Shown piece after piece: positions 3,215 to 48,008 of a DNA stretch of 64,000 bases. Location: the IMG/VR virus record IMGVR_UViG_2939127364_000001. One strand, written 5' to 3'. Made by a program: the position numbers and the translations under genes. The DNA comes from a virus (taxonomy: Duplodnaviria > Heunggongvirae > Uroviricota > Caudoviricetes). The notes beneath the pieces are model-generated. The model did no database searches. It saw nothing but the letters and a program-made list of their open reading frames with translations, and was not told the origin of the DNA. Each line of letters begins with the position of its first letter. The first letter of the stretch is position 1.

Positions 3215-3233
3215 GTAGTTACTTACTTATCAC
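3215..3233. promoter_or_regulatory. Motif B (TACTTA/TAAGTA family) upstream of the 2458..3207 gene
   Basis: gtagttacttacttatcac immediately upstream of the start codon. Confidence 0.3.
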
Positions 3234-3308
3234 AATGAGCGGATGATAGCGACTGGTGGCAGTTTTTGGAAGTGGAAACGGAAGGGAGTTGTTCTGGTGG
3301 TGTCTTTT

Positions 3309-3370
3309 AAAAGACCTGCTTCCGTATATATTTAATAAGTTACTTATTATTTATATATACAGAAACAGGC
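3309..3370. repeat. Palindromic AT-rich element, copy 1 (50 bp identical to 35954..36003)
   Basis: cctgcttccgtatatatttaataagttacttattatttatatatacagaa at 3315..3364 is identical to 35954..36003; the AT-rich core is itself near-palindromic. Confidence 0.6.
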
Positions 3371-3480
3371 ATAACTTGTCGTCTTAGACGCCCAGAAGCT
3401 CTACACTTTGAGCCTGTTAAATTGATTAAAAACTTATGTGTAAAATAGAACGCATTAGTCAGTAGCAAAGAGATGCAATA

Positions 3481-4248
3481 ATGGACGATTTATCGGTATA
3501 CGCGAGATCATTGGATAAGGCTAAATACTATGTTTACTGTCTCTATGATACAGAAGACAAGATGAAAAGACCGTTTTACATAGGAAAAGGCAAATCGACT
3601 CGTTGTCTCGATCACATCAAGTATCCCGATGACTCTCCCAAATCCATGCGGATCAAAGAACTTTTGGCTAATAAAAAATTAGGCATAGATATACTTCGTC
3701 ATGGTATGGATGAAACCACAGCCAAACTTGTTGAGGCGACATGCATCGACCTTATGGGGGTCGGAGAGCTTACGAATAAGGTACGAGGAAGTGGTTCCAT
3801 GATGGGCAGAATATCACTGGACGCCTACCATCACTTAGTGCTGCAAGAGGAAACTGAAATTGCTCCTGAGCACGCCGGTCTTGCCTTCCTGCTAAACAGC
3901 ACCTACAAGTCAGGAATGTCCGCTCTGGCATTATATGAAGCTACGCGTGGCGTATGGGCAAAGGTTCCAAGAGACGAGAATCTCAAATATGCCTACGCTA
4001 CATATGGTGGGCTGATAATGGAAGTTTATCAGATTGAATGCTGGGTCAAAGCCGGTTCTCAGCAGTACTTTACAAGGGATATAGCTCTTGGCCCCGACAC
4101 AAAACGTTATGAATTTGTTGGCAGAATAGCCGATGAGCATATTAGAAAACTGTATGTAGGCAAATTAATCAAGAAGCCACCAAGCTACGGTAGCCCTTTT
4201 GTGAAGGTTGGGGTGGTTAGGACTGAACATAGTGTTAGCGCGGCATAA
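3481..4248 (+). CDS. GIY-YIG domain nuclease (free-standing, possible homing endonuclease)
   Basis: 255 aa; N-terminus YVYCLYD-(10)-PFYIGKGKSTRCLDH matches the GIY...YIG...R signature; own transcription unit on the opposite strand to its neighbours. Confidence 0.6.
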   Translation: MDDLSVYARSLDKAKYYVYCLYDTEDKMKRPFYIGKGKSTRCLDHIKYPDDSPKSMRIKELLANKKLGIDILRHGMDETTAKLVEATCIDLMGVGELTNKVRGSGSMMGRISLDAYHHLVLQEETEIAPEHAGLAFLLNSTYKSGMSALALYEATRGVWAKVPRDENLKYAYATYGGLIMEVYQIECWVKAGSQQYFTRDIALGPDTKRYEFVGRIADEHIRKLYVGKLIKKPPSYGSPFVKVGVVRTEHSVSAA

Positions 4249-4264
4249 AGCTGACACTGTAGTT

Positions 4265-4302
4265 ATGCATTGGCGCAATGTACGCGCCAATGCATGATTT
4301 TT
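4265..4302 (+). terminator. Strong hairpin terminator at convergent junction
   Basis: 12-bp perfect stem atgcattggcgc / gcgccaatgcat with a 7-nt loop, followed by gattttt. Confidence 0.6.
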
Positions 4303-4660
4303 AACCTTTCTTCATCAACTCGCGTTTAATTTCATCGGTACGCATCGTGACATCGGCAGCAGTGATCGCCTCGTTCAGCTTCACGATGTCCTCGATTTCC
4401 TGCGGTGTCTTCTCCGCAAGATGGAAAATAGCAGCACGAATCACATCAGAGCGGGTGAATTTCTCAAAGCGAGGGATGAACTTCATCATCTCCAGCAGTT
4501 CGAAGTATTCGTCTTCCAGTGACATTGTGCGGCTTTTGATTTTCTCTTTGCCACGAGTCGGGCGTCCCTGTGGTCTGACTGGTTGGCGCAAAGGAGTTGT
4601 GTTCTTAGCCGGTGCATCAGGCTCTTTGCGCTTTGCTAGGTCTCCCATTCTCATGGACAT
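4301..4660 (-). CDS. Small partition partner protein (ParG/RHH-like centromere-binding candidate)
   Basis: 119 aa, basic N-terminus, immediately downstream of and overlapping parA by 1 nt. Confidence 0.45.
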   Translation of the reverse strand: MSMRMGDLAKRKEPDAPAKNTTPLRQPVRPQGRPTRGKEKIKSRTMSLEDEYFELLEMMKFIPRFEKFTRSDVIRAAIFHLAEKTPQEIEDIVKLNEAITAADVTMRTDEIKRELMKKG

Positions 4661-5325
4661 TATTCTTCCTCCAGACTCAAGATGTAATCTACAAACTCTT
4701 CGAACTCGGCTTCTGCCTTCTTATCGCGTTCAGCGCCAGTCATTTCAAAGATAGAACGACCTGCCTCTTCCGCATCGTCATAAACGTTACGGTTGTACAG
4801 GTTAACCGGCGCAGCCTCGATGCCGAAAGTTTCGACAATTTCCTTCGCGGCCAGAATACGTGATACCTGGGAAGGCAATGACGGACACTGGTTTATTACC
4901 GCGCGGATCTTAACTTTCTCGTTCACATTGCGAACGTTGTCGATAATCGGGTCGATATCACGCAGAGATTTCAAATCACGACGTTTAGGGCGCAGCGGGA
5001 TGATGATTACATCAGCCATAAGCATCGCCAGACGCTGAATTTCGGAGTCAAAGCCACCAGCATCTACCACTACAAACTCAGCTCTACCCTGAAGCGATTT
5101 TAGGTGCTTAATGATGTCATCCTGAACGTATGCAAAAGGAATCAGCTCAAGGTCTTCGTTCTGTCGACGGTCTTCACACCAGCTCGTTGTCGTGCGCTGA
5201 ATATCTATATCGGTAATATAAACCTTCTTCTTCTTTTTGACTTTCAGGCAAACGGCAATTTGCTGGGCAACGGTGGATTTGCCAGGCCCGCCCTTTGTGC
5301 CGCCAACCACAAAGATCTTGGTCAT
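4660..5325 (-). CDS. parA: ParA-family partition ATPase (small type Ib-like)
   Basis: 221 aa; deviant Walker A GGTKGGPGKST at the N-terminus; motif A 36 nt upstream. Confidence 0.75.
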   Translation of the reverse strand: MTKIFVVGGTKGGPGKSTVAQQIAVCLKVKKKKKVYITDIDIQRTTTSWCEDRRQNEDLELIPFAYVQDDIIKHLKSLQGRAEFVVVDAGGFDSEIQRLAMLMADVIIIPLRPKRRDLKSLRDIDPIIDNVRNVNEKVKIRAVINQCPSLPSQVSRILAAKEIVETFGIEAAPVNLYNRNVYDDAEEAGRSIFEMTGAERDKKAEAEFEEFVDYILSLEEE

Positions 5326-5360
5326 TGGAGAGTTCCCTTTGCGTATATAATTATCGTCTG

Positions 5361-5376
5361 AAACAACTTGTTTTCT
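5361..5376. promoter_or_regulatory. Motif A upstream of parA
   Basis: aaacaacttgttttct. Confidence 0.4.
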
Positions 5377-5604
5377 TATATGTGATATAGCCTAAATGCC
5401 TACGGCTGCGGTGTAAAGGTTAAATGGTAGGTTGTGATTAACAATTGGCAATCATAGCTTGTATTTGTCTGTTGAAAAAAGTAACAATGACCTCTATATT
5501 ACAAGTACGGTGATATGCCGTACACAATTTGATAATGCACACGTAATGGGCTATAGCCTTTTAAAGTAATTTTTGAGTCGAAAACTCAGTTTGAACAGAG
5601 GAGA

Positions 5605-5913: not shown

Positions 5914-5920
5914 TTTACTC

Positions 5921-7956: not shown

Positions 7957-7976
7957 TAGGTAAGTACTTACACATG
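7957..7976. promoter_or_regulatory. Motif B, perfect palindrome GTAAGTACTTAC
   Basis: ggtaggtaagtacttacaca, overlapping the stop of the Gly-rich protein gene. Confidence 0.35.
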
Positions 7977-13469: not shown

Positions 13470-13502
13470 GTTGAATATGCTCCTTGATTTGGCGGGTTAT
13501 CC

Positions 13503-13522
13503 TTGCCCGCCATTAAGTAAAT
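13503..13522. promoter_or_regulatory. Motif B-like site between J and tail fibre genes
   Basis: ttaagtaaatgcttacctat, next to hairpin ggcggg-ttatccttg-cccgcc. Confidence 0.3.
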
Positions 13523-13562
13523 GCTTACCTATTTTTACCGATATAAAAATTTTTTTCCACCA

Positions 13563-19713: not shown

Positions 19714-20410
19714 AATGGATCACACCGTCGGCAAAATAATTCCGACGCGCATTACAGGCGTCATAACGTTTTGTGCAGTAATCCGCACCAGACATAGACG
19801 TCTGCTGGTTATTTTTGTCGAAATATGGACCGGTATAGCCGCATTCTGGCCCTCGGTATTTCCACGGGCAGGTGTTTTTAATGATCTGACGATACGGCAG
19901 TTGCACCCCCATCAAATCGAACACACTGGACAATTCAAACTCGACAACCTGATGAGTTTCGAGAGTTTTCTGTTCGATAAACCACATTTCATCCGGGAAA
20001 TGTTGGTTTGGATCTGCTGTTGGGTTGCCGTCTTTAAAATTAACGGCATCGAGGAAGCGAGCCAGCGTCATCTTGCGAATAATGCGGCAGCCAACAAGAT
20101 CGTCGTTTGCCTGAACTTCCGCAGAGACAGTTCCGGCAAAGTTCGATACCTGAATTTTTGGACGTGGCAACGTTCCCTGGCCAGTTTTGTCAAAGCCTGA
20201 TGCTTTGATTGGCCACGGCTCGTATGTCACTCCTTGCCAGACGACCGGTTGCATCAGTTCGTTTGTTCCGGCGTGGAAGAATAGCTTCCCCCCTGAAGTT
20301 GTGTTCGACATATCCAGTACGAACAACTCAATGAGTGCAGAGGGAGATAAGCTCTGAATATCAGCTTTAATTCCCATTGTTTCATCCTTGAAATAAGTAG
20401 GCGCTAACAT
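19679..20410 (-). CDS. Minor tail protein (lambda L-like)
   Basis: Conserved FLDAVNF and cysteine cluster CPWKYRGPECGY...C; true start possibly the internal ATG at 20377. Confidence 0.85.
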   Translation of the reverse strand: MLAPTYFKDETMGIKADIQSLSPSALIELFVLDMSNTTSGGKLFFHAGTNELMQPVVWQGVTYEPWPIKASGFDKTGQGTLPRPKIQVSNFAGTVSAEVQANDDLVGCRIIRKMTLARFLDAVNFKDGNPTADPNQHFPDEMWFIEQKTLETHQVVEFELSSVFDLMGVQLPYRQIIKNTCPWKYRGPECGYTGPYFDKNNQQTSMSGADYCTKRYDACNARRNYFADGVIHFGGFIGATRYG

Positions 20411-20430
20411 CCTGTCAGCGCCACAATGAT

Positions 20431-20464
20431 AGTAAATTAGTACTTACTTATCTAGATACTTAAG
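20431..20464. promoter_or_regulatory. Motif B cluster between M-like and L-like genes
   Basis: agtaaattagtacttacttatctagatacttaag. Confidence 0.3.
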
Positions 20465-20795: not shown

Positions 20796-20837
20796 CTCAC
20801 ATCCTTGTGAGACTGCCCCGGTCGGGGCAGTCGATAG

Positions 20838-26075: not shown

Positions 26076-26100
26076 GGTTTAAATCCTTTTAAACTCATAC

Positions 26101-26122
26101 AGAGGCCCATCCATGGGCCTCT
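26101..26122 (-). terminator. Hairpin after major tail protein gene
   Basis: agaggccca-tcca-tgggcctct, 9-bp stem; weak U-tract. Confidence 0.35.
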
Positions 26123-26923: not shown

Positions 26924-26940
26924 TGCGCTAATAGTAAGTA
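26924..26940. promoter_or_regulatory. Motif B, perfect palindrome TAAGTATATACTTA
   Basis: agtaagtatatacttac, ~45 nt upstream of the major tail gene start. Confidence 0.35.
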
Positions 26941-26957
26941 TATACTTACCAATTGAG

Positions 26958-29498: not shown

Positions 29499-29542
29499 AA
29501 CGCATTCTCTCTACATGGGCGGCTTTCGCCGCCCAATATTGA

Positions 29543-30473: not shown

Positions 30474-30505
30474 TACAAAAAGGGTGGGCGTATAGCCCAC
30501 CCTTT
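30474..30505 (-). terminator. Rho-independent terminator after major capsid gene (probably leaky)
   Basis: aagggtgggc-tatac-gcccaccctt followed by TTTTTG in - sense; the next gene's SD and ATG follow immediately. Confidence 0.55.
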
Positions 30506-30510
30506 AACAT

Positions 30511-30526
30511 AGATAATTACTTATCT
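30511..30526. promoter_or_regulatory. Motif B-like palindrome between capsid stop and terminator
   Basis: agataattacttatct. Confidence 0.3.
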
Positions 30527-30536
30527 ACTGCACTGA

Positions 30537-31437: not shown

Positions 31438-32325
31438 TTACTTAAGTCCAATTTTCCCCAGACCGGAGGCCAACTTATCCATAGTCGACTTGTTCTTCGG
31501 TTGGGATATTGTGTAGGTCGATTTGGAATGTGAGCCTACACCCTGCTTGGCTTCGCTACGCATCAATGCGTCAGCTTCCGGATCTGCCCGCACAATGCGT
31601 TCAATCGCGGATTCAAACGGCAACGGCTTACCTTCACCGTCAACCAGAACAGTTCGTTCTTTATGACCTGCCGGTTTGTCATAACCCACTACGCTACCGT
31701 CTTCACCCACTTCAAAATGAGAACCGTAGATCACGCGGGCTTTTGCCGGAGTCATCAGAACTTTGTCACGTAGGAAGAGAGAGTTACTGAAGGAAGCGCC
31801 CACGGTCATCTCGACTAATTGAGATTTCAGTGATGCGTTTTCACTTTCCAGTGCTGCATAACGTTCGTCACGCTGTGCCAGCTCTGCCTGGTGTGCTTCG
31901 ATCATCTGTTTTTTAACAGCATCGAACTCACCACGACGCTCCAGTTCAGCTTGCTCCGCCTCACGACGTGCGTTTTCTGCGGCCTGTTCAGCTTCTAAAA
32001 GCTGGCGAGCACGCGCCGGGTCGATGTCACCGTACTGAGCAAGCTGATCGGTCAATGTGCGCTCTTTCTCTTTGCGCTTCATGTTCTCTTTCAGCAGTTC
32101 AGCACCAGCTTTCTTGGTTTTGCGAAGTTCGGCCAGTAACTCTTCATGAGTCATGCCAGCGTATTCGTCATCACCCTTCGGCTGCTCTTTTTGTTCACCC
32201 TGTTTGTCAGGATCTTGTGTACTCTGCTCATTATCAGCAGCTACACCGCCAGCGCCTCCACGCTCATGCGCTTCAGCAACATCCATCAGACCACGACGGG
32301 CCAAAAGCATTTGCCACAGTTGCAT
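31438..32325 (-). CDS. Scaffold protein (candidate)
   Basis: 295 aa, highly charged coiled-coil (...ELLKENMKRKEKERTLTDQLAQ...AEQAAENARREAEQAELERR...), between portal and capsid genes. Confidence 0.55.
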   Translation of the reverse strand: MQLWQMLLARRGLMDVAEAHERGGAGGVAADNEQSTQDPDKQGEQKEQPKGDDEYAGMTHEELLAELRKTKKAGAELLKENMKRKEKERTLTDQLAQYGDIDPARARQLLEAEQAAENARREAEQAELERRGEFDAVKKQMIEAHQAELAQRDERYAALESENASLKSQLVEMTVGASFSNSLFLRDKVLMTPAKARVIYGSHFEVGEDGSVVGYDKPAGHKERTVLVDGEGKPLPFESAIERIVRADPEADALMRSEAKQGVGSHSKSTYTISQPKNKSTMDKLASGLGKIGLK

Positions 32326-32346
32326 AAAAATTCCCTTTGTTACTTA

Positions 32347-33921
32347 TCACTCGTTCTCTTGAGTAGATGAGTCCCCATTCCCTCGGGGTTGATCTTGCCC
32401 GCTTTCTTGGGCTGCACCTTGATCATAAGTAAGCACTGACTTATTTTCAAGGGTATTTAGATCATTTTTTGGCGGAAAATTCAAGAGATCTTTATCAAAT
32501 TCCTTTTTCATCGCCTCAGTAATGTTCGGGAAAATCTTCTCAATAAGCATTTCCATCTGGTGACGACGTACAGAGTCCGGTGCCTGAAGTAATGACAGTT
32601 TCTCGGCAACAGAAAATTCATCTGTAAGGCCACGAATATCGAAACTTTCTGGATACGCAATTAAAGAGTGGTCTTCGTCCAGATCTGCCCCCATCCATTT
32701 CGCAACCAGTAGCATGATTTGGCGTTCAGCCCTTTCCAGACGCTCTGCTTTTGTGACAAGCAAGCTATTTACACGCTGGAAGTCATACATTTTTGCGGCA
32801 CCAGATGAATTATCGATTCCCTGTGCGTTGTCCTGCTTCGTTCGCTCACCAGCTACACCAACTGAATGGTAGATTTCGTTAATCACCGTCTTAATCGTAG
32901 TGATGATCATCTGAGCTTGTTTCGGGTCTGGTGACAGATAAAACGGCTGGTTTCCACCTTCAGAATCGTAGGTGAAGACTCGCTTTGTGCCCATTTCAAG
33001 CACTTTAGTGTGGTTTTCATCACCAGGTAAAAGCGACTGTACCGGTATAGCCAACTGGCTAAATGTCTGATCCTGAATAATGGCATCAAGGTTTGACAGA
33101 TAGTTTGCAACCGCACGATCAAGATAAGCGATATCATCGATCAACGATGGGCTGAAATACGGTGATTCACTTTCTCCAATACAATCAACAGGAAACACAG
33201 GAACTACGCCGAGATTATGCTCACCGCTATCCTCTAAAATAACTTTTGCCTGACGGCGACCTGCTCCACCAGCGCCCTTCTTCACTTCCTCACGGAACAG
33301 ATACCACTCGTTTTGTGTCCACAGACGATAACGTTGGTATTCCTGACCTGTAGAAGTAAAAGGATCTGCGTCATCACGAGCGACTTCCACAATTAACGCC
33401 CACAACATATTCCCGTCGTCGTCCCATGCCACATCCAGCATTTGCTGAGGTGAAATCCAGTAGGCGTAGGCGCGAGCATCTTTCTTTTTCTCGTCAGCTA
33501 CTGACTCAACATCACCACTCATCGTGCTATCGACAACAACCCATATGCGACCGTAAATAGACGACTGCAAATCAATAGCGGCCATAAATGAGTCAATAGA
33601 GGCATTCTGGCGAGTCGCACGTTTCCAGAAATTGCGGATCTGCTCTGGTGCCTCTTCGATATTTCTATGAATGTCTTCTTTAAAGAGATATTTGTTGATG
33701 AGGTTTACCACCTCACGAGTGTGGTTGAAGCGATAAGCACGTTCAACTCGCTCCTTAAACTCCTGATCTCCCTCTTTAAAGTAACGAAAGATATTGTCTG
33801 TAAACCAACCACGCCCGCCAGCGTAAGTGCTGGCGAGGAAGTCCCAATGTTCTTTTTTCTTTTCGTATTCCGGGTGGCGTCGCGCCACCAGATCCTTAAT
33901 TTGTTTGTCGTTCAATTCCAT
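32347..33921 (-). CDS. Portal protein
   Basis: 524 aa, immediately downstream of the large terminase. Confidence 0.75.
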   Translation of the reverse strand: MELNDKQIKDLVARRHPEYEKKKEHWDFLASTYAGGRGWFTDNIFRYFKEGDQEFKERVERAYRFNHTREVVNLINKYLFKEDIHRNIEEAPEQIRNFWKRATRQNASIDSFMAAIDLQSSIYGRIWVVVDSTMSGDVESVADEKKKDARAYAYWISPQQMLDVAWDDDGNMLWALIVEVARDDADPFTSTGQEYQRYRLWTQNEWYLFREEVKKGAGGAGRRQAKVILEDSGEHNLGVVPVFPVDCIGESESPYFSPSLIDDIAYLDRAVANYLSNLDAIIQDQTFSQLAIPVQSLLPGDENHTKVLEMGTKRVFTYDSEGGNQPFYLSPDPKQAQMIITTIKTVINEIYHSVGVAGERTKQDNAQGIDNSSGAAKMYDFQRVNSLLVTKAERLERAERQIMLLVAKWMGADLDEDHSLIAYPESFDIRGLTDEFSVAEKLSLLQAPDSVRRHQMEMLIEKIFPNITEAMKKEFDKDLLNFPPKNDLNTLENKSVLTYDQGAAQESGQDQPRGNGDSSTQENE

Positions 33922-33932: not shown

Positions 33933-33952
33933 TAGATAATTACTTACCTATC
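33933..33952. promoter_or_regulatory. Motif B-like site at the terminase/portal junction
   Basis: tagataattacttacctatc, overlapping the terL stop and the portal SD. Confidence 0.3.
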
Positions 33953-35876: not shown

Positions 35877-35917
35877 AAACAACTTGTTTACTGCATCTGC
35901 TAACCAACTTGTTTTCT
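35877..35917. promoter_or_regulatory. Two copies of motif A upstream of terS
   Basis: aaaacaacttgttta and aaccaacttgttttct; adjacent hairpin agagcgc-gtccat-gcgctct. Confidence 0.4.
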
Positions 35918-35950: not shown

Positions 35951-36013
35951 AAGCCTGCTTCCGTATATATTTAATAAGTTACTTATTATTTATATATACA
36001 GAAGCAGGTCTTT
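35951..36013. repeat. Palindromic AT-rich element, copy 2
   Basis: 35954..36003 identical to 3315..3364; flanked by a perfect 8-bp inverted repeat cctgcttc / gaagcagg. Confidence 0.6.
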
Positions 36014-36308: not shown

Positions 36309-37208
36309 TTATGCCGGTAAAGCAATTTCTAACGGTTTATCCAAAGGTTGTTTGTCGAATGCCAGCAGTGGCAGCGTGTCAGGCAGCCGACGACCAAAGT
36401 CAGGGTTTCGGTACACACCATACAACGGAGACGTAAAGCTCAGGTTGTGAATGTCCTTGAGCAGCTTCACAATGCTGGCCTCGTCCACCAGACTGTCGGC
36501 AATGTCCTGAATCGTCGTGCCACGATTCCGCCCAGCTTTTGCCAGGGAACTGTTCTTGTGGTAGTCCGCTACCAGATCACGCAGTGCACGGCGACGACGA
36601 GACTCGCTCATTGCGAACAACTCTTTGACGATCGCCTCGTTATCACCCGGGTCGGAACGGAAATGGCGCTGGAATACACGCAGTGCACTTTCATAGCTCT
36701 TCGGTCGCTCAGGGCGGATGAACTTAAACCCTGCTTTCATGGCGAAGGGATTGTATTTGCTCATCGAGGACTGGATCTCAATGATTGGCCGGTCGTGCAT
36801 CCTGCTAACCAGGTTAATCATTCGATAGGAGACGCCGACACCGCGGTACTGAGTGTCCACAACGGAACGGCTGATCACCGCAAAGTTGTTGTTCACGTAC
36901 CGCCCCCAATACTGGTTGGCCACGGTGGTATTGGTGGTTGGCTTCAGCTTAGGAAACATGCGATGGCGAGGCGCCAGCAGCAGTTTCGGGTAAGCCATAA
37001 CCACGACGCCCACCAGCCGGTCGTCCAGTTCGCAGCGATAATACGTTGGCGCAAACGGCTTACCATCCGTCTTGTAGTGCAGCGACTTCAGCGCGTGCCA
37101 GTCTTCAACCGTGCCTTTGGTAACGGTCATACGCTCCAGAAAGTCCAGATGACGCGGGAACTCTTCCGGGCGGTAGCGTTTGATGATGATGCCTGTCATG
37201 TCGATCAC
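36309..37208 (-). CDS. GNAT-domain protein with C-terminal extension (hypothetical)
   Basis: 299 aa; GNAT motif-A-like VVDTQYRGVGVSYRMINLV and motif-B-like NPFAMKAGFKF; 4-nt overlap with the upstream 84-aa gene. Confidence 0.5.
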   Translation of the reverse strand: MIDMTGIIIKRYRPEEFPRHLDFLERMTVTKGTVEDWHALKSLHYKTDGKPFAPTYYRCELDDRLVGVVVMAYPKLLLAPRHRMFPKLKPTTNTTVANQYWGRYVNNNFAVISRSVVDTQYRGVGVSYRMINLVSRMHDRPIIEIQSSMSKYNPFAMKAGFKFIRPERPKSYESALRVFQRHFRSDPGDNEAIVKELFAMSESRRRRALRDLVADYHKNSSLAKAGRNRGTTIQDIADSLVDEASIVKLLKDIHNLSFTSPLYGVYRNPDFGRRLPDTLPLLAFDKQPLDKPLEIALPA

Positions 37209-37459
37209 CTACGCTCGATATTGGCATTGATGAAGTCCAGGCGAAGCGATTCCATCGCCCCAACCATGACGTATGGACGCCCACCGTTATGCCAGCAATC
37301 CAGCACACTGCCGTCGTTGTTGATCATCAGCAGTGCCAGGCTCTGGCTTTTGCCTTCTCTGGCGTACTGGAGTGCTTCTTCCAGCAGGCGGATGACTTCA
37401 ACGTTGTTGTTGTCAGCCTCTTTCGATGGCTTCAGCTCTACGATCTTCAAATCAGGCAT
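37205..37459 (-). CDS. Small hypothetical protein (operon member)
   Basis: 84 aa; overlaps both neighbours (translational coupling). Confidence 0.4.
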   Translation of the reverse strand: MPDLKIVELKPSKEADNNNVEVIRLLEEALQYAREGKSQSLALLMINNDGSVLDCWHNGGRPYVMVGAMESLRLDFINANIERR

Positions 37460-38090
37460 ATTCCACCTTCACGCGTTCTTTGTAGTGCTTGGTGATCTGC
37501 ATATCCGGGCGCAGCGCGTTCTTCAGGTCTTCGTGAGTCGTCGCCACCATTACCGTCGCACCAACCTTTCGAGCGGCACGCTGGAGGTTAGATGCCACAA
37601 CCTGAGCGGTTACACGGTCGAGAACAGCGCCGAACTCGTCAGCAGCCCACACTTTAGCGCCTGACTCAATCAGTTTGGCAATCTTGAGACGATATTTCTG
37701 ACCGTCTGACATTTCAGAAGGCTTGCGAACAAACAGATATGCATCGTTCAGACCAGCCATAGATAACAACCCAAGCGCATCACTGGTAGTTTTGCCCAGT
37801 TGGTCAATGACGTTAACCTCATTATCGAAGGTAAAATCATCGATGGAGGCTACAGACAGCCCTTCATCCTTCATCTGTCGTTGCAACTCGCGCAGCACAA
37901 CGGATTTGCCGGATCCGGATTGGCCGGTGATGTACACCACATCGCCCTGCTTCACTTCCAGCTCCAGATTGTCGTAAAGCGTCCACTCTTTTTCGTCCAG
38001 ACCAAGCCCGAACGACTCAGCGATTTCCAACGTGCGCGTGGTTTTATTTACGCGTGTCTGAAACGATACGTTGATGATGTATTTGCTCAT
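37452..38090 (-). CDS. Small ABC-type ATPase (nucleotide-binding domain only)
   Basis: 212 aa; Walker A GQSGSGKS, signature-like SDGQKYR, Walker B VWAADEFG, H-loop TTHE. Confidence 0.6.
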   Translation of the reverse strand: MSKYIINVSFQTRVNKTTRTLEIAESFGLGLDEKEWTLYDNLELEVKQGDVVYITGQSGSGKSVVLRELQRQMKDEGLSVASIDDFTFDNEVNVIDQLGKTTSDALGLLSMAGLNDAYLFVRKPSEMSDGQKYRLKIAKLIESGAKVWAADEFGAVLDRVTAQVVASNLQRAARKVGATVMVATTHEDLKNALRPDMQITKHYKERVKVEYA

Positions 38091-38755
38091 GCAGCCATCT
38101 CCCCGGAAGAGATCTTCTCCGCATATGCCACAAATGCGTCTACCCCGCTTTCTCCTGTCATTTCTTCCATGTGGGCAAGCAAATCACCAACAACAATGGC
38201 AGAGCCAGCAGGGAGCGTTTTAAAGCCCAATACGTCGACAACACGTACTTCTTCCGCTGCAACTTCACGACTGATCTCGGTGTGTTCATCCTTCTGTCGT
38301 TTAGTTTCTTCGCCAAGATCGATAACTAGCGAGTCGGTGTCCATTTCTTCTGTCATGCTGCCAACGAGAACATTCAACTCACGCTCTTCAAAGCCGAAAA
38401 CCTCGATATCGTCCAGAACAAGCGACTCAAGCTCTTTTTGTAGCTTAATTGCATCGTAATCAATGCTGGCAAGTCGGTTATCTTCAAGACGCTTCGCACG
38501 AACCTCGTCATCACTGAGATCATCGCGAACAATAACCGGTACGCGCTCAAGTCCAGCAAAAATTGCAGCCTCACGGCGGCCGTGGCCAGTAATAATTACG
38601 TCGTTCTTATCGACCGTAATTGGCTGGTCAAATCCGCGCTTTTTAATGGCTGCGGCCAGATCTCGGATCTGCTGTTCATCATGCTTTTTGGCATTCATCT
38701 CATAGGGAATAAGATCTGCCGGGTCGCGATATACGATTTCAAACTTTTTGGTCAT
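38087..38755 (-). CDS. ParB N-terminal-domain protein 2
   Basis: ParB-type box ...ITGHGRREAA...ERVPVIV; start placed at ATG 38755, which overlaps the upstream stop as TAATG (the track ORF extends to 38788). Confidence 0.6.
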   Translation of the reverse strand: MTKKFEIVYRDPADLIPYEMNAKKHDEQQIRDLAAAIKKRGFDQPITVDKNDVIITGHGRREAAIFAGLERVPVIVRDDLSDDEVRAKRLEDNRLASIDYDAIKLQKELESLVLDDIEVFGFEERELNVLVGSMTEEMDTDSLVIDLGEETKRQKDEHTEISREVAAEEVRVVDVLGFKTLPAGSAIVVGDLLAHMEEMTGESGVDAFVAYAEKISSGEMAA

Positions 38756-39453
38756 TACATACGCTCCTTGTAGTAGTCGACCAGCCATACCAGAGCCTCA
38801 CCAGCGTTCTCCATTTCATTACCGGTGTTAATAGCCTGCTCTTTGATGATGTTTTTTATGGTTTCTGCAACACGATCTGACGCATCGAAAGTTACTTTGA
38901 AGCGCATGGTCTGATGTTCCGCACCCACACGTTCGGTTTTCTCTCGTTTGTCGGTATCGACAGGCTCATCACTACCACGAGACAACGCCTCCAGTGCTTC
39001 AAGGTCGATTGCCGCCTCTTTTGCTAAAACCATCGAGATTTCGTCGTCATACGGGGCGATTTCAGACAGTTGATAGTCAAGTTCTGACTGAATTTCTTCA
39101 ATGAAGCGTTGCAATGCGATTTGGTCGTCTTCACCGTATCGCTCGTTGTCCACCAGTGACATCTGTTTAGCTACGACATCGCTAATTTTGCCCACAGAAA
39201 GCACCGGAACCGTTGAAATTCCTTGCTCAATAGCAGCACGCCAGCGATGTTCGCCGCCGAGGATTTCAAAAAATCCATCTTCAAGTTCACGAGCCAAAAT
39301 TGGCTTAAAAAAGCCCAATTTTTCGATAGAACCTTTCAGTTTTTCAAAATTCTGCGCACCAACCGAATTGGTGTTCCAGGTATTCGGGCGAAGGTTGGCA
39401 ACATCAACCTGCAAAATCGTGATTTTTACATCCATTTTATTGCTACAATCCAC
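38755..39453 (-). CDS. ParB N-terminal-domain protein 1
   Basis: 232 aa; ParB box GGEHRWRAA...VPVLSV; first gene of the coupled operon. Confidence 0.6.
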   Translation of the reverse strand: MDCSNKMDVKITILQVDVANLRPNTWNTNSVGAQNFEKLKGSIEKLGFFKPILARELEDGFFEILGGEHRWRAAIEQGISTVPVLSVGKISDVVAKQMSLVDNERYGEDDQIALQRFIEEIQSELDYQLSEIAPYDDEISMVLAKEAAIDLEALEALSRGSDEPVDTDKREKTERVGAEHQTMRFKVTFDASDRVAETIKNIIKEQAINTGNEMENAGEALVWLVDYYKERM

Positions 39454-39471
39454 TAAGTAATCACTTACTTA
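39452..39471. promoter_or_regulatory. Motif B in divergent region between ParB-like operon and SF2 helicase
   Basis: ctaagtaatcacttacttat. Confidence 0.3.
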
Positions 39472-41079: not shown

Positions 41080-41358
41080 ATGAGCGAAAAGAAAACAACT
41101 TATTGCCAAGTGGCATTGTCTGATAAGGCCAATGAAAAACTTGGAAAATTTCAAATAAAACTCAAAGAGAAAAAAATCAAGATGTCTAAGGCTGAAGTTA
41201 TCAATGCCATTCTGGAGACGATGACTATGGCTGAATTTGACAAAGTCACATCTGCTGTTGGGGTTTCCGCTAAGACGCGTGAGAAAATCATGCGCATCTA
41301 TGAAAACTCCAATATGACAAAAAAAGATTTAGAGGAAATACTGAGCAGGTTGCCGTAA
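41080..41358 (+). CDS. Small hypothetical protein
   Basis: 92 aa, starts 3 nt after the helicase stop. Confidence 0.45.
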   Translation: MSEKKTTYCQVALSDKANEKLGKFQIKLKEKKIKMSKAEVINAILETMTMAEFDKVTSAVGVSAKTREKIMRIYENSNMTKKDLEEILSRLP

Positions 41359-41423
41359 CATTTCATATTTACCCCCTATCTACTAATTCTATGATGTGCT
41401 CACTTGTTAGAAAGGAGCACATC

Positions 41424-41990
41424 ATGAGTTGGTTAAAAGAATTATCATTTGTTGACACCACTGGCGCTAAGAAAAATCATTCTTTCTGGAAAGTCAGCGA
41501 TCCTTCTGATTTTCTTGTTGGTGCTAATGCTGCTTTTGAATTGCTTAACTTTTATCAACGTTATCCAGAAATGAAACACAGTCCACTCCTGTACAGAATA
41601 ACAAACGATATGAATAGGTCTGGTTTATTATCAAGTGAGTCAGCGAAAGGCTTTTTTAGCAAAATTACGCCTCACATATCATTCGATGCAACAAACGAAA
41701 TTGATTATCTATCCACGAAATCTCAAGAACAATTATCTGTACCACCTGAGAAAAAAGAAAGACGAATTGCCAGCATTGAAAATATATCGAAAGAGCTTCG
41801 CACAACAACGTTGAGGCTGCTGAACTTTCTTACGCTGCTTAATTGGATAGATGATCAAACATTGATTCCATCAACAGATGCGTTGGATAACAGAGTCCTT
41901 AGGCTGAACAAAAAATCGCAATTTGGTTTTGTGTTCACCAAAAAAGGTGAAGATTTAATCAAAAGAAAATATAGATTATTGAATGATTAA
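41424..41990 (+). CDS. Hypothetical protein (AT-rich moron gene 1)
   Basis: Track ORF 41391..41990; ATG at 41424 follows GAAAGGAG; low GC; a 9-bp inverted repeat gatgtgctc/gagcacatc spans the SD. Confidence 0.5.
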   Translation: MSWLKELSFVDTTGAKKNHSFWKVSDPSDFLVGANAAFELLNFYQRYPEMKHSPLLYRITNDMNRSGLLSSESAKGFFSKITPHISFDATNEIDYLSTKSQEQLSVPPEKKERRIASIENISKELRTTTLRLLNFLTLLNWIDDQTLIPSTDALDNRVLRLNKKSQFGFVFTKKGEDLIKRKYRLLND

Positions 41991-42130
41991 TAGTCTACAT
42001 GCAGGTGTATGAGAGCACCTGCATGTGACATTCGTCACGTTTTTTGAAACATATACCTCCGGCTGAAAAAAGATCTTGATTGGCTGAACGATATTTGTAG
42101 GCTTACCTATGTTTAGAACCGGAGGCATGA

Positions 42131-42679
42131 ATGGGTCACTTACCTTTTGATAAGAGATTTTTAAGTGCAAAGGAAATAAAGGACTGTGTGGATTTTTATC
42201 ATAAAAAAAATAAACAGAAATCTTGCTTAGAAAACCCTAGACACCTAACTTCTTCTCAAAAAGAAGAGCACAAACTAATACAATACAGGTTAAAGACTTC
42301 ACGTAAAGATCGTTATGAACACTATATATACGTGAAAGATATTGAAGGCACCAGGACAAATTGCGGAGTAGTCTTTTATCCTTTTGATATAACAAAAATG
42401 TTCGCTATTATGGACTCCTGTGATGGCGTGGCCCCTGGAAAATTGGAGTTGCATTCAAATTTATACACTTATCCCAGTGCTCGGAAATGGATAAGAGATA
42501 GCACGTCACCCTATGGTTTTTCTTTTCTTTTCAAAAATCATCTGGCATTAAAAAATTTTATCGAAAAATACAACAACTGCATATCATCAGGTGAATTAAG
42601 TTTCGACAAAGTCTGTAAAAACATAAAAAGATATGACCTCTTAAAAGATATTTACAACAGAACTCAGAAGAGCATGTAG
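42131..42679 (+). CDS. Hypothetical protein (AT-rich moron gene 2)
   Basis: 182 aa; low GC; no recognisable motif. Confidence 0.5.
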   Translation: MGHLPFDKRFLSAKEIKDCVDFYHKKNKQKSCLENPRHLTSSQKEEHKLIQYRLKTSRKDRYEHYIYVKDIEGTRTNCGVVFYPFDITKMFAIMDSCDGVAPGKLELHSNLYTYPSARKWIRDSTSPYGFSFLFKNHLALKNFIEKYNNCISSGELSFDKVCKNIKRYDLLKDIYNRTQKSM

Positions 42680-42706
42680 CCACTCACTAATCATAGTCAA
42701 TCAAAT

Positions 42707-43126
42707 ATGAAAGCAAAAAACTTAATGATTCTAATGCTAACCACGTCACTAATTGGGTGTTCGTCTTCGTCTATATCTATTTCAAAGGCAAAGGATGCAC
42801 CTCAAAGCAGAATATTTAAATATCAAACACCACATGAGTCTAGTCTAACAATAGTTCGAGACAAAGGGCTGGTTGGTTCTGCATGTAACGCTTCCATTTT
42901 CATCAATGGAGAAACGGCTGCAAAGCTAGAACCTGGTGAAAAAGCAACTTTCTACCTTAACGAAGGAGAGTGGATCGTTGGGACATCAATTGAAAGTTCA
43001 GGTCTTTGCGCATTTAACCCCTCCAGGATGGAACGAGAAATAAAGCTAAAGCAGGGCGACTCGAAAACATATCGGGTTTTCACTACCTGGGATGGTACAA
43101 TGGACATATTGCCAACCACTTTATAA
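42707..43126 (+). CDS. Lipoprotein (superinfection-exclusion candidate)
   Basis: 139 aa; signal peptide with lipobox LTTSLIGCSSS. Confidence 0.6.
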   Translation: MKAKNLMILMLTTSLIGCSSSSISISKAKDAPQSRIFKYQTPHESSLTIVRDKGLVGSACNASIFINGETAAKLEPGEKATFYLNEGEWIVGTSIESSGLCAFNPSRMEREIKLKQGDSKTYRVFTTWDGTMDILPTTL

Positions 43127-43130
43127 TGAT

Positions 43131-43652
43131 ATGACGACGAAAGACATCACCTACGGCATACCGGCTGAAGTCTGGCCGCGAGACTACGAACATGCAGAGC
43201 GCACCTTGCTCTTCTGGCGGAGTGCAAAATTTCCTGTAAGAGTCACTCTCGAAGACGGCCAAGTGTTTTGCATGTATGTCTACGGGCTATTGAGCGCAAG
43301 AAATAAGCTGAACCTCACACCAGATCCGCTTAGCAACACAAATCGTATAAGGCTCCCTCTTGAGCGCATTAGCACAATTGAGTCGGGCATAGAAGAGGTT
43401 GACACTTCATTCACAGGTCGACTAACGCTAAACAATGAACAGATGGTTAATCAGCCATCACGTCGTGACTTTTTTAAGATATGTCGTCAGGCTTACCAAA
43501 ACGGCAAATCTATAAGGGTCTACATGGCAGACGGTCGCGAAATTGAGGGAACGTCAGATGGCGTTGACGCCTGTCTAGTCACACTTAAGTTGGAAGACGG
43601 TAGAAAAATACTTATTTTCTTCGATTGGGTTGAACGAATCCTTCCGTTTTAA
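43131..43652 (+). CDS. Hypothetical protein
   Basis: Track ORF 43092..43652; start set at ATG 43131, just after the lipoprotein stop. Confidence 0.4.
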   Translation: MTTKDITYGIPAEVWPRDYEHAERTLLFWRSAKFPVRVTLEDGQVFCMYVYGLLSARNKLNLTPDPLSNTNRIRLPLERISTIESGIEEVDTSFTGRLTLNNEQMVNQPSRRDFFKICRQAYQNGKSIRVYMADGREIEGTSDGVDACLVTLKLEDGRKILIFFDWVERILPF

Positions 43653-44907: not shown

Positions 44908-44931
44908 CGTTTCCAATACTTCCACCATAAC

Positions 44932-44954
44932 GCGCCAATGATGGCGCTTTTTTT
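44932..44954 (+). terminator. Third tandem terminator
   Basis: gcgcca-atga-tggcgc followed by ttttttt. Confidence 0.55.
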
Positions 44955-45491: not shown

Positions 45492-45494
45492 CAG

Positions 45495-45977
45495 TTACAC
45501 GCCATCAAGGATGTGGATGCGGTTGCTTGCGTATACATTCAGCATAAAGTTAGCGCAAAACAGTTTCCATGTATCAACGCCAGCGGTATACGTAATGTTT
45601 TTGCATTTAATTGCATTGTTGGCGATCCGCATCCCCTGCGATACTGCTTCATCGTCGGAAAATTTGAACGACGATTGAGTTTTAATCCAGACAGAAATCT
45701 GCGTAGCGAACTCAATCAGCTTGGACTGGCAGAATCGCCCGGAGCGCACCGGAAAGACGAACGTTCCGAATCCAGAATTTACCACATACGCTTTCTCAAA
45801 TACCCGCGAGTAACGACGATTGCAAATGATGTCGCGTGCAATAATGCATTTTTCTTGTGCTGACAGTTCTACCGTCTCATTGTCGCGCCATGCACCAAGT
45901 ACTCGTTTTTCAATGTCAGAGAACGTTACAGCGATATTGCCATGTGCGGGTGCGTTTACAGTAGCGATAAAATTCAT
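45495..45977 (-). CDS. Hypothetical early protein
   Basis: 160 aa; motif A 20 nt upstream of the ATG. Confidence 0.5.
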   Translation of the reverse strand: MNFIATVNAPAHGNIAVTFSDIEKRVLGAWRDNETVELSAQEKCIIARDIICNRRYSRVFEKAYVVNSGFGTFVFPVRSGRFCQSKLIEFATQISVWIKTQSSFKFSDDEAVSQGMRIANNAIKCKNITYTAGVDTWKLFCANFMLNVYASNRIHILDGV

Positions 45978-45996
45978 GATTAATTCCTTATCGTAA

Positions 45997-46013
45997 ATAA
46001 CAAATTGTTTTCT
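45997..46013. promoter_or_regulatory. Motif A upstream of 45495..45977
   Basis: ataacaaattgttttct. Confidence 0.4.
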
Positions 46014-46186
46014 TGTTGGCGTTAATTATCGTTGTACGAATAAGGCGTCAAAGTGGAAAGTTGCGGTAGCCGGACGGGAACAGGTGGGTTTGTCGGTTGC
46101 CTGGAGGTAAGAGGTTGGTGTTTTTAGCCTGCGGGAAACAGGATGGTCATTTAAGGCCACCAGCGTTAACTGGTGGCGTTTATCTC

Positions 46187-46777
46187 TCAGCGAGCAGATG
46201 AATAATATCCTTGAATTAGCTTTTCATCCACATACGGATACAGGAAGCGACGCGGGTTAGTTTGTCTGTGATTAAAAAAGTCTCTGTCATCGAAATATTG
46301 GGCACAATGATCATGGAATCCATGAATTGCATTAACAGCTAGTTCGCGGATGTCTTCATCTGTCTTGTCTGGTTTTGAATTGTACACATATATAGTAGGA
46401 TCAAGATCATACTCATTAATTGAGACTTCGACAAGTGCGTCTGGCTCTTCGCCAAACTGCTCAAGCCAAAAAAATCTTGTCATTTTCTCGTTGTGTAAAG
46501 ATGCCACTCCATAAAAATCCATTGGGAAACGAGTTTTAAGATCGCCATTCAGAATCTCTTCATCTGGCTCTTTTTCTACAATGTAAACATCCTTAGTTTT
46601 GATATACTCCACCATAGGATTAACCATTTTTAATTTTGCGTTCCAAAAATCTTCTTCTTTTTTGCGCATTTCTTCTTCTGCTTGCTGAAACTCTGCTTCT
46701 GCGGATTTCATTTCTTTCATAGTCTGTCCATATACTTCGTACAGTTCATTGGTTTTTTTCTCTAAATCAATGCTCAT
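46187..46777 (-). CDS. Hypothetical early protein
   Basis: 196 aa, acidic, coiled-coil N-terminus; half-site TTGTTTTC upstream. Confidence 0.5.
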   Translation of the reverse strand: MSIDLEKKTNELYEVYGQTMKEMKSAEAEFQQAEEEMRKKEEDFWNAKLKMVNPMVEYIKTKDVYIVEKEPDEEILNGDLKTRFPMDFYGVASLHNEKMTRFFWLEQFGEEPDALVEVSINEYDLDPTIYVYNSKPDKTDEDIRELAVNAIHGFHDHCAQYFDDRDFFNHRQTNPRRFLYPYVDEKLIQGYYSSAR

Positions 46778-47060
46778 TTTTAATTCCTCGTTTGTTTTCG
46801 ATGTGATAATTATCGCTGAATGAAATAGGCTAAAAAGAAGATTTATAAGGCTACTATCTGGAAGTAAGGCAAAGTGTTGTCATTTAAGGCCACCAATGCT
46901 GATGGCCTTAATAATTATCGCACGATTACGCTAAGGATCTTTTCCTCAACTGATTTGTTGTTGCGACTAAACTGCCTTGCGTATCTGATGACAGAAGAGG
47001 CGTTTTGCTTTCTGACCATCTCGGCTCTTTCCTTCAGGCGTTTCTTGAAATCGCCCATAT

Positions 47061-47477
47061 TTACCACCAGGCGCAGAAGGTCAGTCTGTTATTGTGAAAG
47101 TCGTGGTTCTTAATCAGATCTTCCACAAGCTCTTTCAACTGCCCCACATCATGCCAGTAACCTTCATCGTACTCCTGACTGCCGAAGAAAAAACCTTCCC
47201 GGGTAGGCAAGTACTCTTCGCAATTACTTTCGTTTATGTGCATCAAATGAGCCTTCAGAAAACAAATGTCATTCATCGTTAATTCTAAAAGCTCACAATT
47301 TTCGACTTCACCTACGTTGCGCTCCATCCACCCAACGAGCGCATTGAACTTACGGAAGTAAGCAACCTGCTTTCTGGATGCCTCGTTATTCAGATCGTTT
47401 TTAGGCTGTGTCTCGATATAGATATCAAGTCCCATGATGGTTTCCTTATTAAGTTGCTTCAGTGAAATCATTTTCAC
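47061..47477 (-). CDS. Hypothetical early protein
   Basis: 138 aa, GTG start; motif A 15 nt upstream. Confidence 0.5.
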   Translation of the reverse strand: MKMISLKQLNKETIMGLDIYIETQPKNDLNNEASRKQVAYFRKFNALVGWMERNVGEVENCELLELTMNDICFLKAHLMHINESNCEEYLPTREGFFFGSQEYDEGYWHDVGQLKELVEDLIKNHDFHNNRLTFCAWW

Positions 47478-47491
47478 AAATCAGATAAGGC

Positions 47492-47508
47492 AGAAAACAA
47501 ATTGTTAT
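47492..47508. promoter_or_regulatory. Motif A upstream of 47061..47477
   Basis: agaaaacaaattgttat. Confidence 0.4.
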
Positions 47509-47552
47509 CGGGCATAAGAAAATGGCGCGGTTTACGCGCCATTCAAAGAGGA

Positions 47553-47948
47553 TTAAGCGAATACGCTTTCAGGGATTAAGGTGTCAGCAGGAATGCCGGA
47601 GGTAATGCGCAGGCCGTACTGACCAATCCAGGTAGTGTTGGTATTCAGGTTGGAGGCGAATACGGTGTTAACCATATTCATCATTGGTTCAAACACCTCT
47701 TCATCAACCTGGCGGAAGTAGTTCTCGATTTTCAGCAGCAGCGGGTCAGTTGCATCGAAAATAGACTGGTATTGAGTCGCGTACTCGCCGTCGGAGTCAT
47801 CACCTTTACGCACGATCGTACTGGCCTGTACTTCGGCGCCAGTTTCGGTGTTGTACGTAACAACGGTGATTTTTGCCACATTCTTACCTTCGGCGGTTTC
47901 AGAGGCATAGTAAACATCAACTGTCAGTTTTTCGCGTTTAATGGTCAT
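47553..47948 (-). CDS. Hypothetical protein
   Basis: Track ORF extends to 48014; ATG at 47948 is preceded by GGAGAG and lies downstream of a terminator and motif B. Confidence 0.45.
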   Translation of the reverse strand: MTIKREKLTVDVYYASETAEGKNVAKITVVTYNTETGAEVQASTIVRKGDDSDGEYATQYQSIFDATDPLLLKIENYFRQVDEEVFEPMMNMVNTVFASNLNTNTTWIGQYGLRITSGIPADTLIPESVFA

Positions 47949-47990
47949 TTCACTCTCCGTAGTGTATTGGTTATTTTTATATTCTATGAT

Positions 47991-48008
47991 CGTAAGTATG
48001 TACTTACA
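47991..48008. promoter_or_regulatory. Motif B near-palindrome
   Basis: cgtaagtatgtacttaca. Confidence 0.35.

Follow-up and report, generated by a model that had tools for sequence, protein, structure and literature searches.

The window studied here is a 64,000-nucleotide (nt) stretch of a Caudoviricetes genome (IMG/VR record IMGVR_UViG_2939127364_000001), and it belongs to an SSU5-like phage-plasmid that shares 97% identity with Escherichia phage Cyrano (pLF82) and ~80% with both Salmonella phage SSU5 and Klebsiella phage-plasmids. We found that the hexamers TAAGTA and TACTTA at its gene junctions are the core of a dyad, (atGA)TAGGTAAGT·ACTTACCTA(TCat), where the point marks the centre of symmetry. 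This dyad is real, conserved, spread over whole genomes, symmetric at the DNA level and replaced from lineage to lineage, and at several copies it overlaps promoters; which protein binds it, and that binding represses, we infer. The reading we favour, with somewhat better than even confidence, is that the dyad would be the dispersed operator of the element's plasmid-state repressor, for which an XRE-type protein is the candidate, as with C1 of phage P1. Cyrano, SSU5 and pJN2-26 supplied the annotation of the window. Genes for packaging, head, tail and lysis lie on the minus strand, from ~39.4 kilobases (kb) down to ~6.9 kb of the window, and in whole genomes of the SSU5-like family nearly all genes share one direction.

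Enrichment was measured in the non-coding DNA, which amounts to 6.2 kb (9.6% of the window, 41% GC), against per-segment dinucleotide-preserving shuffles. TAAGTA/TACTTA occurs there 19 times against an expected 4.6±2.1, a count that 0 of 2000 shuffles reached, and it ranks first among the over-represented hexamer pairs of the non-coding window DNA. Over the whole window 35 occurrences were observed, with 20.5±5 expected. An 18-base-pair (bp) model of the dyad, TA[GA][GA]TAAGT·ACTTA[CT][CT]TA, returned 10 matches scoring at least 16 of 18 (0.08 expected) and 26 scoring at least 15 of 18 (1.2 expected). An earlier, sequence-only reading of the window had listed nine places with this motif, several of them described as perfect palindromes. 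All nine hold TAAGTA/TACTTA pairs, within 0-11 nt of where they had been placed, and the signal persists once AT-richness is modelled, the check which that reading had asked for. In addition to the nine, a strong copy is present within the portal gene's 3' end (32426-32443). Its prediction of a protein-binding DNA site, as opposed to chance or AT-richness, is borne out by this enrichment and by the conservation at orthologous junctions described below. Perfect symmetry holds for inner cores only (GTAAGTACTTAC; GTAAGTATATACTTAC), the full 18-mers in the window scoring 15-17 of 18. The suggestion that part of the signal is translational punctuation applies to a few isolated half-sites (31439 and 32341) and to the terL stop codon TAG within the 33933 dyad.

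The 23 sites of Cyrano give the gene-sense consensus a(t/a)(g/a)A-TAGGTAAGT·ACTTACCTA-T(c/t)(a/t)t, with near-invariant TA steps at 4-bp intervals and a variable central 4 bp. In its degenerate form, (atGA)TA[G/A][G/A]TAAGT·ACTTA[C/T][C/T]TA(TCat), the dyad spans 18-26 bp, and its flanks are symmetric out to ~26 bp. A second spacing form has four additional central bp (GGTAAGTATATACTTACC and GATAAGTA-AG-TACTTATC). The window holds about ten dyad copies, nearly all at non-coding junctions that precede lytic transcription units (Table 1). A site usually starts 0-16 nt past the upstream stop codon, at times providing that stop, and ends 0-130 nt ahead of the next start codon. At least six copies lie within 0-19 nt of the next ATG, so that a transcript starting there would lack a ribosome-binding site.

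The dyad was found at the same junctions in six enterobacterial relatives, which answers the second check put forward by the sequence-only reading. Junctions were compared in SSU5, Klebsiella pJN2-26, a Citrobacter plasmid, Yersinia pestis pFra and a 71%-identical Klebsiella plasmid, and the dyad is conserved across the E. coli, Salmonella, Klebsiella, Citrobacter and Yersinia relatives. Among the aligned relatives it is kept between terL and portal, capsid and Ig, Tc and tail-tube, M and L, and J and fibre genes, and in the divergent helicase/ParB region. At four junctions, pairwise identity was 0.80-0.87 in motif columns and 0.49-0.74 in the other non-coding columns (0.80 vs 0.49 for the 13514 copy, 0.84 vs 0.61 for 20433, 0.83 vs 0.74 for 26931 and 0.87 vs 0.72 for 30510). 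The 32426 dyad recurs in near-identical form at Cyrano 3528 and SSU5 3545, one base differing (GTGC in the window, GTAC in both). A perfect 18-mer was found at 31 IMG/VR loci, all of them on SSU5-like contigs. The Y. pestis pFra dyads at the terL-portal, Tc-tube and M-L junctions carry extra substitutions (e.g. GTAAGTGCCTACCT, GTATATATTTATC) compared with the near-identical Citrobacter and SSU5 sequences, and these would be consistent with relaxed constraint on a plasmid that has ceased to act as a phage.

Whole-genome scans located 23 sites in Cyrano and 24 in SSU5, and ~23-25 per genome overall. In Cyrano, 22 of the 78 intergenic gaps of at least 25 bp hold a site, all tied to main-direction genes, early as well as late. 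Beyond the structural and lysis junctions, sites precede the genes for SSB, SbcD, NrdA, ThyX and Dam methylase and a gene that follows RecA, together with the DnaB operon and the ParB operon, while the small-ORF (open reading frame) region at ~39.5-58 kb of the window has few. The proposed late-gene regulator is not supported by this distribution, since the same dyad stands ahead of replication, recombination and nucleotide-metabolism genes genome-wide and, within the window itself, at the head of the DnaB operon (3212), between the divergent helicase/ParB promoters (39454) and at an early-region promoter (47993).

Other palindromes occupy the same junctions in Acinetobacter. An A. baumannii SSU5-like plasmid carries ATCAGTCAGT·ACTGACT.. 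there, with ~28 sites genome-wide and a half-site that has 7 of 10 bases in common with the enterobacterial one, and ATTAGTAAGC·GCTTACTAAT is found in a second A. baumannii lineage. At the helicase/ParB position (39454 in the window) every lineage has its own palindrome. Judged from these comparisons, the element encodes the ligand, and ligand and site co-evolve. A host factor is excluded because two specificities occur in one host species (A. baumannii), a pattern that looks like heteroimmunity.

In all three specificity classes a -10-like hexamer (TATCAT, TATACT or TAATAT) starts 7-8 nt from the dyad centre. Two copies in the window lie in the 17-bp spacer of a promoter or promoter-like sequence (Table 1), and at Cyrano 57.4 kb a dyad fills the spacer of TTGAAA-17-TATCAT. 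The helicase/ParB dyad is flanked by -10-like hexamers that point in opposite directions (ATTATA towards the helicase gene and, in relatives, TACAAT/TATAAT towards ParB). The copies that lie within canonical promoters speak for repression, and we infer a repressor operator overlapping promoters in preference to a late activator. Directionality was significant in the first Acinetobacter class only, where the upstream ATC arm is kept at 15 of 23 sites and the downstream GAT at 4 of 23 (p=0.002), the lost GAT often being replaced by a better -10 (TATACT, TACAAT, TATTAT). The enterobacterial sites gave no directional sigma-70 signature, with TAnnnT on the right in 33 of 61 and mirrored on the left in 28 of 61, and a -35 match no better than that of the mirror image. 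TATCAT, tried as a directional -10 for this class, was rejected as part of the symmetric flank. Perfect halves are more numerous upstream than downstream in the enterobacterial class (13 vs 5), a bare count that partly reflects strand composition. Anchoring on the strict inner core left too few sites for analysis in the enterobacterial genomes, and generic promoter and terminator scans were informative for a few copies only.

The candidate repressor is a 128-amino-acid XRE-type helix-turn-helix (HTH) protein (Cyrano CYRAN_45), encoded on the opposite strand beside the integrase gene and outside the window, with weak matches to HTH_19 and HTH_3. A domain search found no S24 cleavage domain in it, so that an anti-repressor or some other route would be required for induction. 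Homologues of the gene were found in 994 plasmid records, the Acinetobacter lineages included, and their distribution over genera is that of the 955 matches to the late region. The gene is expressed in the LF82 lysogen (PMC9928086, Table 1 of that paper). Its promoter reads TTTACA-16-TAATAT, and GGTAAG..CTTACC comes immediately after it in the elements of E. coli, Salmonella and Klebsiella. In a divergent Klebsiella element the promoter is accompanied by a pair of half-operators separated by 33 bp, and in the first Acinetobacter lineage a homologous GCTGTAAT motif precedes a palindrome specific to that lineage. The Cyrano and pHCM2 proteins (66% overall identity) do not differ in their HTH segment, which is kept throughout the enterobacterial class and varies from one specificity class to another. 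Circumstantially, these features make up the signature of an autoregulated immunity repressor.

The XRE locus lies at Cyrano 41090-43038, which corresponds to ~41.8-42.7 kb in SSU5. A three-gene module (XRE, integrase and a small divergent ORF) was present in all plasmid-form relatives that we inspected. The XRE gene is absent from SSU5 by tblastn, and the SSU5 annotation lists neither an integrase nor a small divergent ORF at this place, although neither was searched for by sequence. SSU5 is described as virulent (PMC5427195), and deletion of the XRE module may explain its lytic habit.

We propose that a dimeric, element-encoded regulator reads the dyad, the XRE protein being the candidate in the role of prophage repressor. 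The outer operator arm would double as a -10-like hexamer, which would put the dyad centre at about -19/-20. In the plasmid state, dimers on ~25 sites would cover the spacer and the -10 of lytic promoters that host RNA polymerase would otherwise use, and at the repressor's own promoter a bound dimer would cover +1. Copies between a stop codon and a ribosome-binding site might act as roadblocks or mark very weak internal promoters, and a roadblock is likewise proposed for copies that have no usable promoter. Loss of the repressor would then release all lytic units, namely DNA metabolism, packaging, head, tail and lysis.

Several observations weigh against a repressor operator. Most copies have no recognisable -35 (mean 2.8 of 6 matches, the same as in the mirrored orientation), and in this they resemble activator-dependent promoters such as the P1 late promoters. 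The AAGT/ACTT half-sites are also common to the dyad and the P1 Lpa box AAGTTACTT. With ~28% of gaps holding a site, the one at the XRE promoter is only moderately informative, and in the second Acinetobacter lineage only partial sites were seen upstream of XRE. SSU5 retains well-formed sites despite having no XRE gene. Two spacing forms 4 bp apart are awkward for one rigid dimer, and a single repressor on all promoters does not account for early and late timing. A wider idea, which we put forward tentatively and with low confidence, is that one dyad whose outer arm serves as the -10 gates nearly every lytic unit, early and late, of a 108-kb phage-plasmid, so that immunity would be built on a single operator type and not on a promoter cascade. 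At least three heteroimmune classes would then share the same geometry and positions, and the repressor and a lytic-phase factor (Cro-like or Lpa-like) may read the site in turn.

The main and serious rival is an activator site of the P1 Lpa type, which we regard as a real possibility but not the probable answer. Here the copies would be middle or late promoters, with a sigma-70 -10 and an inverted repeat near -20 in place of the -35, on which a phage-made activator turns on DNA-metabolism, structural and lysis genes; the copy at the +1 of XRE would shut the repressor off in a Cro-like manner. P1 late promoters consist of a -10 and a 9-bp inverted repeat, in 11 copies, with no -35 (PMC10695390; AF234172 annotation). 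The dyads match this architecture: a -10 is joined by an inverted repeat that lies ~20 bp ahead of the start, and most copies have no -35. The directional arms of the Acinetobacter copies also speak for it, as do sites ahead of highly expressed genes (scaffold/capsid, tail tube, tail fibre and holin). Against it, tblastn of P1 Lpa found no homologue (PF25716) in Cyrano or SSU5, with nothing below E=0.5, and a family search showed PF25716 to be confined to P1-like elements; ten window proteins were Pfam-scanned, and a remote analogue is possible. Several copies occupy the 17-bp spacer of near-consensus -35/-10 promoters, where a bound dimer should block polymerase, and the symmetric protein-contact flank covers the -10 itself. 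The copies closest to an ATG would yield transcripts stripped of their ribosome-binding site. Nor are the sites restricted to late genes, since they also serve SSB, NrdA, ThyX, Dam, the DnaB operon and the helicase/ParB region.

It is improbable, in our judgement, that the dyads are loading sites for a ParB_N (CTPase-type) protein whose clamp silences or de-silences transcription, as at the OB sites of RK2 KorB or at VirB sites. Two ParB_N proteins (window 38755-39453 and 38087-38788) do stand at the head of the ParB-to-terminase operon, and this operon head carries a lineage-specific palindrome in every lineage, as any regulator would explain equally well. The first aligns with Spo0J, Noc and ParB structures (with Spo0J to residue 160) and the second weakly with KorB, but the ParB_N alignments (Pfam, PDB and between lineages) are suggestive only as evidence on the ligand. 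RK2 has 12 OB sites in 60 kb, which the density here, ~1 site per 4.7 kb, resembles. Beyond the ParB_N domain, however, no HTH or DNA-recognition segment was evident by Pfam or lineage alignment. Between the two Acinetobacter lineages the palindrome changes although the ParB proteins stay fairly similar, and a fixed geometry with the -10 hexamer is unexpected for clamp-loading sites.

The operon that runs into terS (window 38087-39453 and 36309-38090, both on the minus strand) opens with these two ParB_N-domain proteins and continues with an ABC-type ATPase, a 299-amino-acid protein and an 88-amino-acid protein (phrog_900). The 299-amino-acid protein is annotated by PHROG as 'ABC transporter ATP-binding subunit' and has no Pfam match. 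For the 88-amino-acid protein, which is encoded upstream of terS, and for other small proteins of the window, family and structure searches returned no informative match. Homologues of the ParB_N proteins, of both ATPase-like proteins and of the 88-amino-acid protein are encoded by the Acinetobacter plasmid. True partition genes (ParA and a 119-amino-acid partner) are found elsewhere in the window, at 4301-5325.

A role in RNA, as a 7-9 bp AU-rich hairpin that signals processing, termination or stability or serves as a translational operator, is very unlikely. The sites do follow stop codons closely in co-directional operons, their variable central 4 nt resemble a loop, and GC hairpins come after several of them. 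Mismatches between the arms on the sense strand, however, were G.U in 43 cases and A.C in 53, and the RNA-hairpin reading was rejected on this lack of asymmetry. The purine/pyrimidine positions of the two arms vary independently, with no compensatory pairing, and the arm sequence itself is conserved, not merely its pairing. Taken together, the lack of a G.U excess, the independent arm variation and the conserved arm sequence point to a double-stranded DNA site read by a dimer. Copies in divergent promoter regions and at the XRE promoter +1 would be only partly transcribed, and the form with 0 spacing has no room for a loop.

We give still less credence to mimicry of SlmA sites, in which the dyads would copy the host SlmA-binding sequence (SBS) and recruit the nucleoid-occlusion factor to the plasmid. 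SlmA recognises GT[R]AG[Y]·[R]CT[Y]AC, with G, T, A and G fixed at positions 1, 2, 4 and 5, any purine at position 3 with unchanged dissociation constant and any pyrimidine at position 6 (PMC3020112). The core GTAAGTACTTAC at window 7960-7971 is an exact fit to this specificity and, in that respect, the dyad is like the SBS of E. coli. In contrast, the full 12-mer is matched by only 1 site in the window, 1 in Cyrano and 3 in SSU5, of ~24 sites in each genome; position 3 is A and almost never G; and the best-conserved bases are the outer TA steps, outside the SBS. Host SlmA as the ligand was rejected on the paucity of 12-mer matches and on the two motifs in elements of one host species, A. baumannii, which indicate an element-encoded ligand. 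The fit at 7960-7971 is probably coincidental to the operator core, and that single copy could bind SlmA. Finally, a functionless by-product of AT-rich intergenic composition and of TAA/TAG stop codons in several frames, an explanation to which two hexamer matches in mere stop-codon context (31439, 32341), the TAG/TAA within the motif and the few stop codons that it provides lend some colour, is already refuted by the shuffle and dyad counts, by a motif better conserved than its own flanks and by the palindromes that replace it, lineage by lineage, at the same junctions, and we give it practically no weight.

Table 1. Dyad copies and associated sequence features, with positions in the window (+4 form, four additional central bp).
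Feature	Sequence	Position	Strand	Context
Dyad	sense GATAAGTAAGTAACTACCTG	3212-3229	-	14 nt 5' of ATG of hypothetical gene heading DnaB-helicase operon; orthologues at Cyrano 31297, SSU5 33601
Dyad	sense TGTGTAAGTACTTACCTA	7957-7974	-	exact GTAAGTACTTAC at 7960-7971; upstream gene's stop in left arm; orthologues at Cyrano 26658, SSU5 27475
Extended -10-like	TGATATAAA	~20 nt downstream of 7957-7974 dyad		ahead of holin gene
Dyad	sense TAGGTAAGCATTTACTTA	13514-13531	-	tail protein J / tail-fibre gene junction; GC hairpin 2 nt later
Dyad, +4 form	sense TAGATAAGTAAGTACTAATTTA	20433-20454	-	tail genes M / L junction; then TACTAT/TATCAT
Dyad, +4 form	sense TTGGTAAGTATATACTTACTAT	26931-26952	-	TAAGTATATACTTA at 26935-26948; ahead of tail-tube (Ig-domain) gene
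Dyad	sense TAGATAAGTAATTATCTA	30510-30527	-	10 nt past major-capsid stop; directly 5' of terminator-like hairpin
Terminator-like hairpin	GGGTGGGC..GCCCACCC-TTTTT	directly 3' of 30510-30527 dyad
Isolated TAAGTA	TAAGTAA incl. DUF6651-gene stop	31439-31444	-	no dyad
Isolated half-site	TGA-TAAGTAAC	32341-32346	-	right after portal stop; no partner arm; kept in relatives
Sigma-70-type promoter	TTGAAA-17-TATGAT	32422-32450	-	portal gene 3' end; ~100 nt upstream of scaffold-like DUF6651 and capsid genes
Dyad	TAAGTCAGTGCTTACTTA	32426-32443	-	in portal gene 3' end; fills spacer of sigma-70-type promoter 32422-32450
Dyad	sense TAGGTAAGTAATTATCTA	33933-33950	-	first triplet TAG = terminase-large stop; portal ATG 12 nt downstream
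Dyad		39454-39471	.	divergent helicase/ParB control region
Promoter-like	TTGTAA-17-TAGAAT	47981-48009	-	dyad in spacer; just downstream of intrinsic terminator 48018-48045
Dyad	GTAAGTACATACTTAC	47995-48008 (core 47993-48010)	-	spacer of promoter-like 47981-48009, early region
Separate palindrome family	(A)AGAAAACAAnTTGTTTa(A)GG	2434-2446, 5361-5373, 35877-35889, 35902-35914, 45998-46010, 47495-47507, 48882-48894, 51691-51703, 51742-51754		directly 5' of ribosome-binding sites

The isolated half-site at 32341 is probably stop-codon and half-site context only. GC-rich hairpins are found at many late junctions, with or without a dyad (30486-30502, 29516-29535, 26090-26115, 20800-20825, 20400-20422 and 13480-13500), and the one that directly follows the major capsid gene is a complete terminator-like hairpin with a T-run. 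Where both are present the dyad always lies 2-10 nt 5' of the GC hairpin, so that a transcript from the dyad-linked -10 would begin inside or at the 5' arm of the hairpin. Three big plus-strand genes (window 56259-62375; 520, 439 and 1038 amino acids) oppose the main direction and map, by rough coordinate extrapolation only, near an 801-bp unannotated gap of Cyrano. The divergent region upstream of them holds a weak dyad-like TAGGTCATTCGTTACCTA (window 56171-56188).

Two further palindromes were noted. The separate family (A)AGAAAACAAnTTGTTTa(A)GG (Table 1) has 18 copies in Cyrano, 20 in SSU5 and essentially none in the Acinetobacter lineages. Its occurrence follows that of a FljA-like gene (PF03614, window 43092-43652, plus strand), of which the Acinetobacter plasmid encodes no homologue. 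In Salmonella, FljA acts on the leader of the fliC mRNA, where CAAGTTG occurs, and if this action holds here the family could be a set of translational operators. A ~54-bp GC-clamped, AT-rich long palindrome, CCTGCTTCCGTATATATTTAATAAGTTACTTATTATTTATATATACAGAAGCAGG, is present in two copies (window 3315-3368 and 35954-36008), one upstream of the DnaB-operon region and one upstream of terS, with related sequences in Cyrano near 31.18, 78.10 and 108.36 kb. Its centre is AAGTTACTT, identical to the P1 Lpa box of LPhot, and the candidate functions are a bidirectional terminator, an origin- or pac-related site and a late promoter box.

The SSU5-like phage-plasmids are poorly studied and clinically widespread, being very common among clinical Enterobacterales and Acinetobacter. 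The ~1000 plasmid records found here count pHCM2 of S. Typhi and pFra/pMT1 of Y. pestis among them, and resistance genes are carried by some. We found no operator, late promoter or regulatory circuit of SSU5, pHCM2 or pMT1 described in the searchable literature. The dyad is real, statistically solid and wider in reach than first thought; it is undescribed, yet of a familiar control type, that of a dispersed operator or promoter-box regulon. It yields a testable map of ~25 sites, a candidate master repressor and a possible reason for the virulence of SSU5, and it allows SSU5-like elements to be sorted into immunity classes from sequence. Its practical use would lie in predicting induction, superinfection immunity and gene transfer, and it brings no new principle of gene control.

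Among known systems, KorB of RK2 is alike in that one palindrome recurs in many copies over a large plasmid and the element encodes ParB_N proteins, but OB sites have no fixed relation to a -10 and KorB has a defined HTH, neither of which was evident here. The P1 Lpa promoters are alike in the -10, in the inverted repeat ~20 bp upstream of the start, usually without a -35, and in standing before structural and lysis genes in some dozen copies or more (PMC10695390). They are unlike in that the repeat here spans 18-26 bp instead of 9 bp and abuts or overlaps the -10, with 8 nt from centre to hexamer instead of 9-14 (two P1 examples), and in that the dyad also stands ahead of replication genes and no Lpa homologue was found. 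Lambdoid CI/Cro control resembles the proposed system in that a small ORF is divergent to the gene of a small HTH repressor, whose own promoter carries palindromic operators. Lambdoid heteroimmunity is alike as well, related phages of one host having different repressor and operator specificities at homologous positions. Unlike the sites described here, which are spread over ~25 junctions, lambdoid operators form clusters in two control regions, and late-gene expression depends on antitermination.

The likeness to P1 C1 lies in a plasmid prophage of ~100 kb with many transcription units and, as proposed here, one repressor with scattered operators. P1 C1 operators overlap the -35, -10 or +1 of sigma-70 promoters, that of the repressor's own gene included, and AF234172 annotates several within 10.8 kb. 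Here a comparable overlap is clear for the copies at 32422-32450 and 47981-48009, for that at Cyrano 57.4 kb, and for those of the XRE promoter and the helicase/ParB region; most other copies show a -10-like hexamer only, with no -35. Many copies of one site in non-coding DNA, the mark of a dispersed operator, are likewise found (23-24 per genome). P1 operators are asymmetric 17-mers read by a large C1 protein, whereas here the site is a symmetric dyad of 18-26 bp and the candidate a 128-amino-acid XRE-type HTH protein, and we claim no sequence homology between the two systems. P1 late genes are controlled indirectly, via Lpa, whereas here the same dyad stands at early and late junctions alike.

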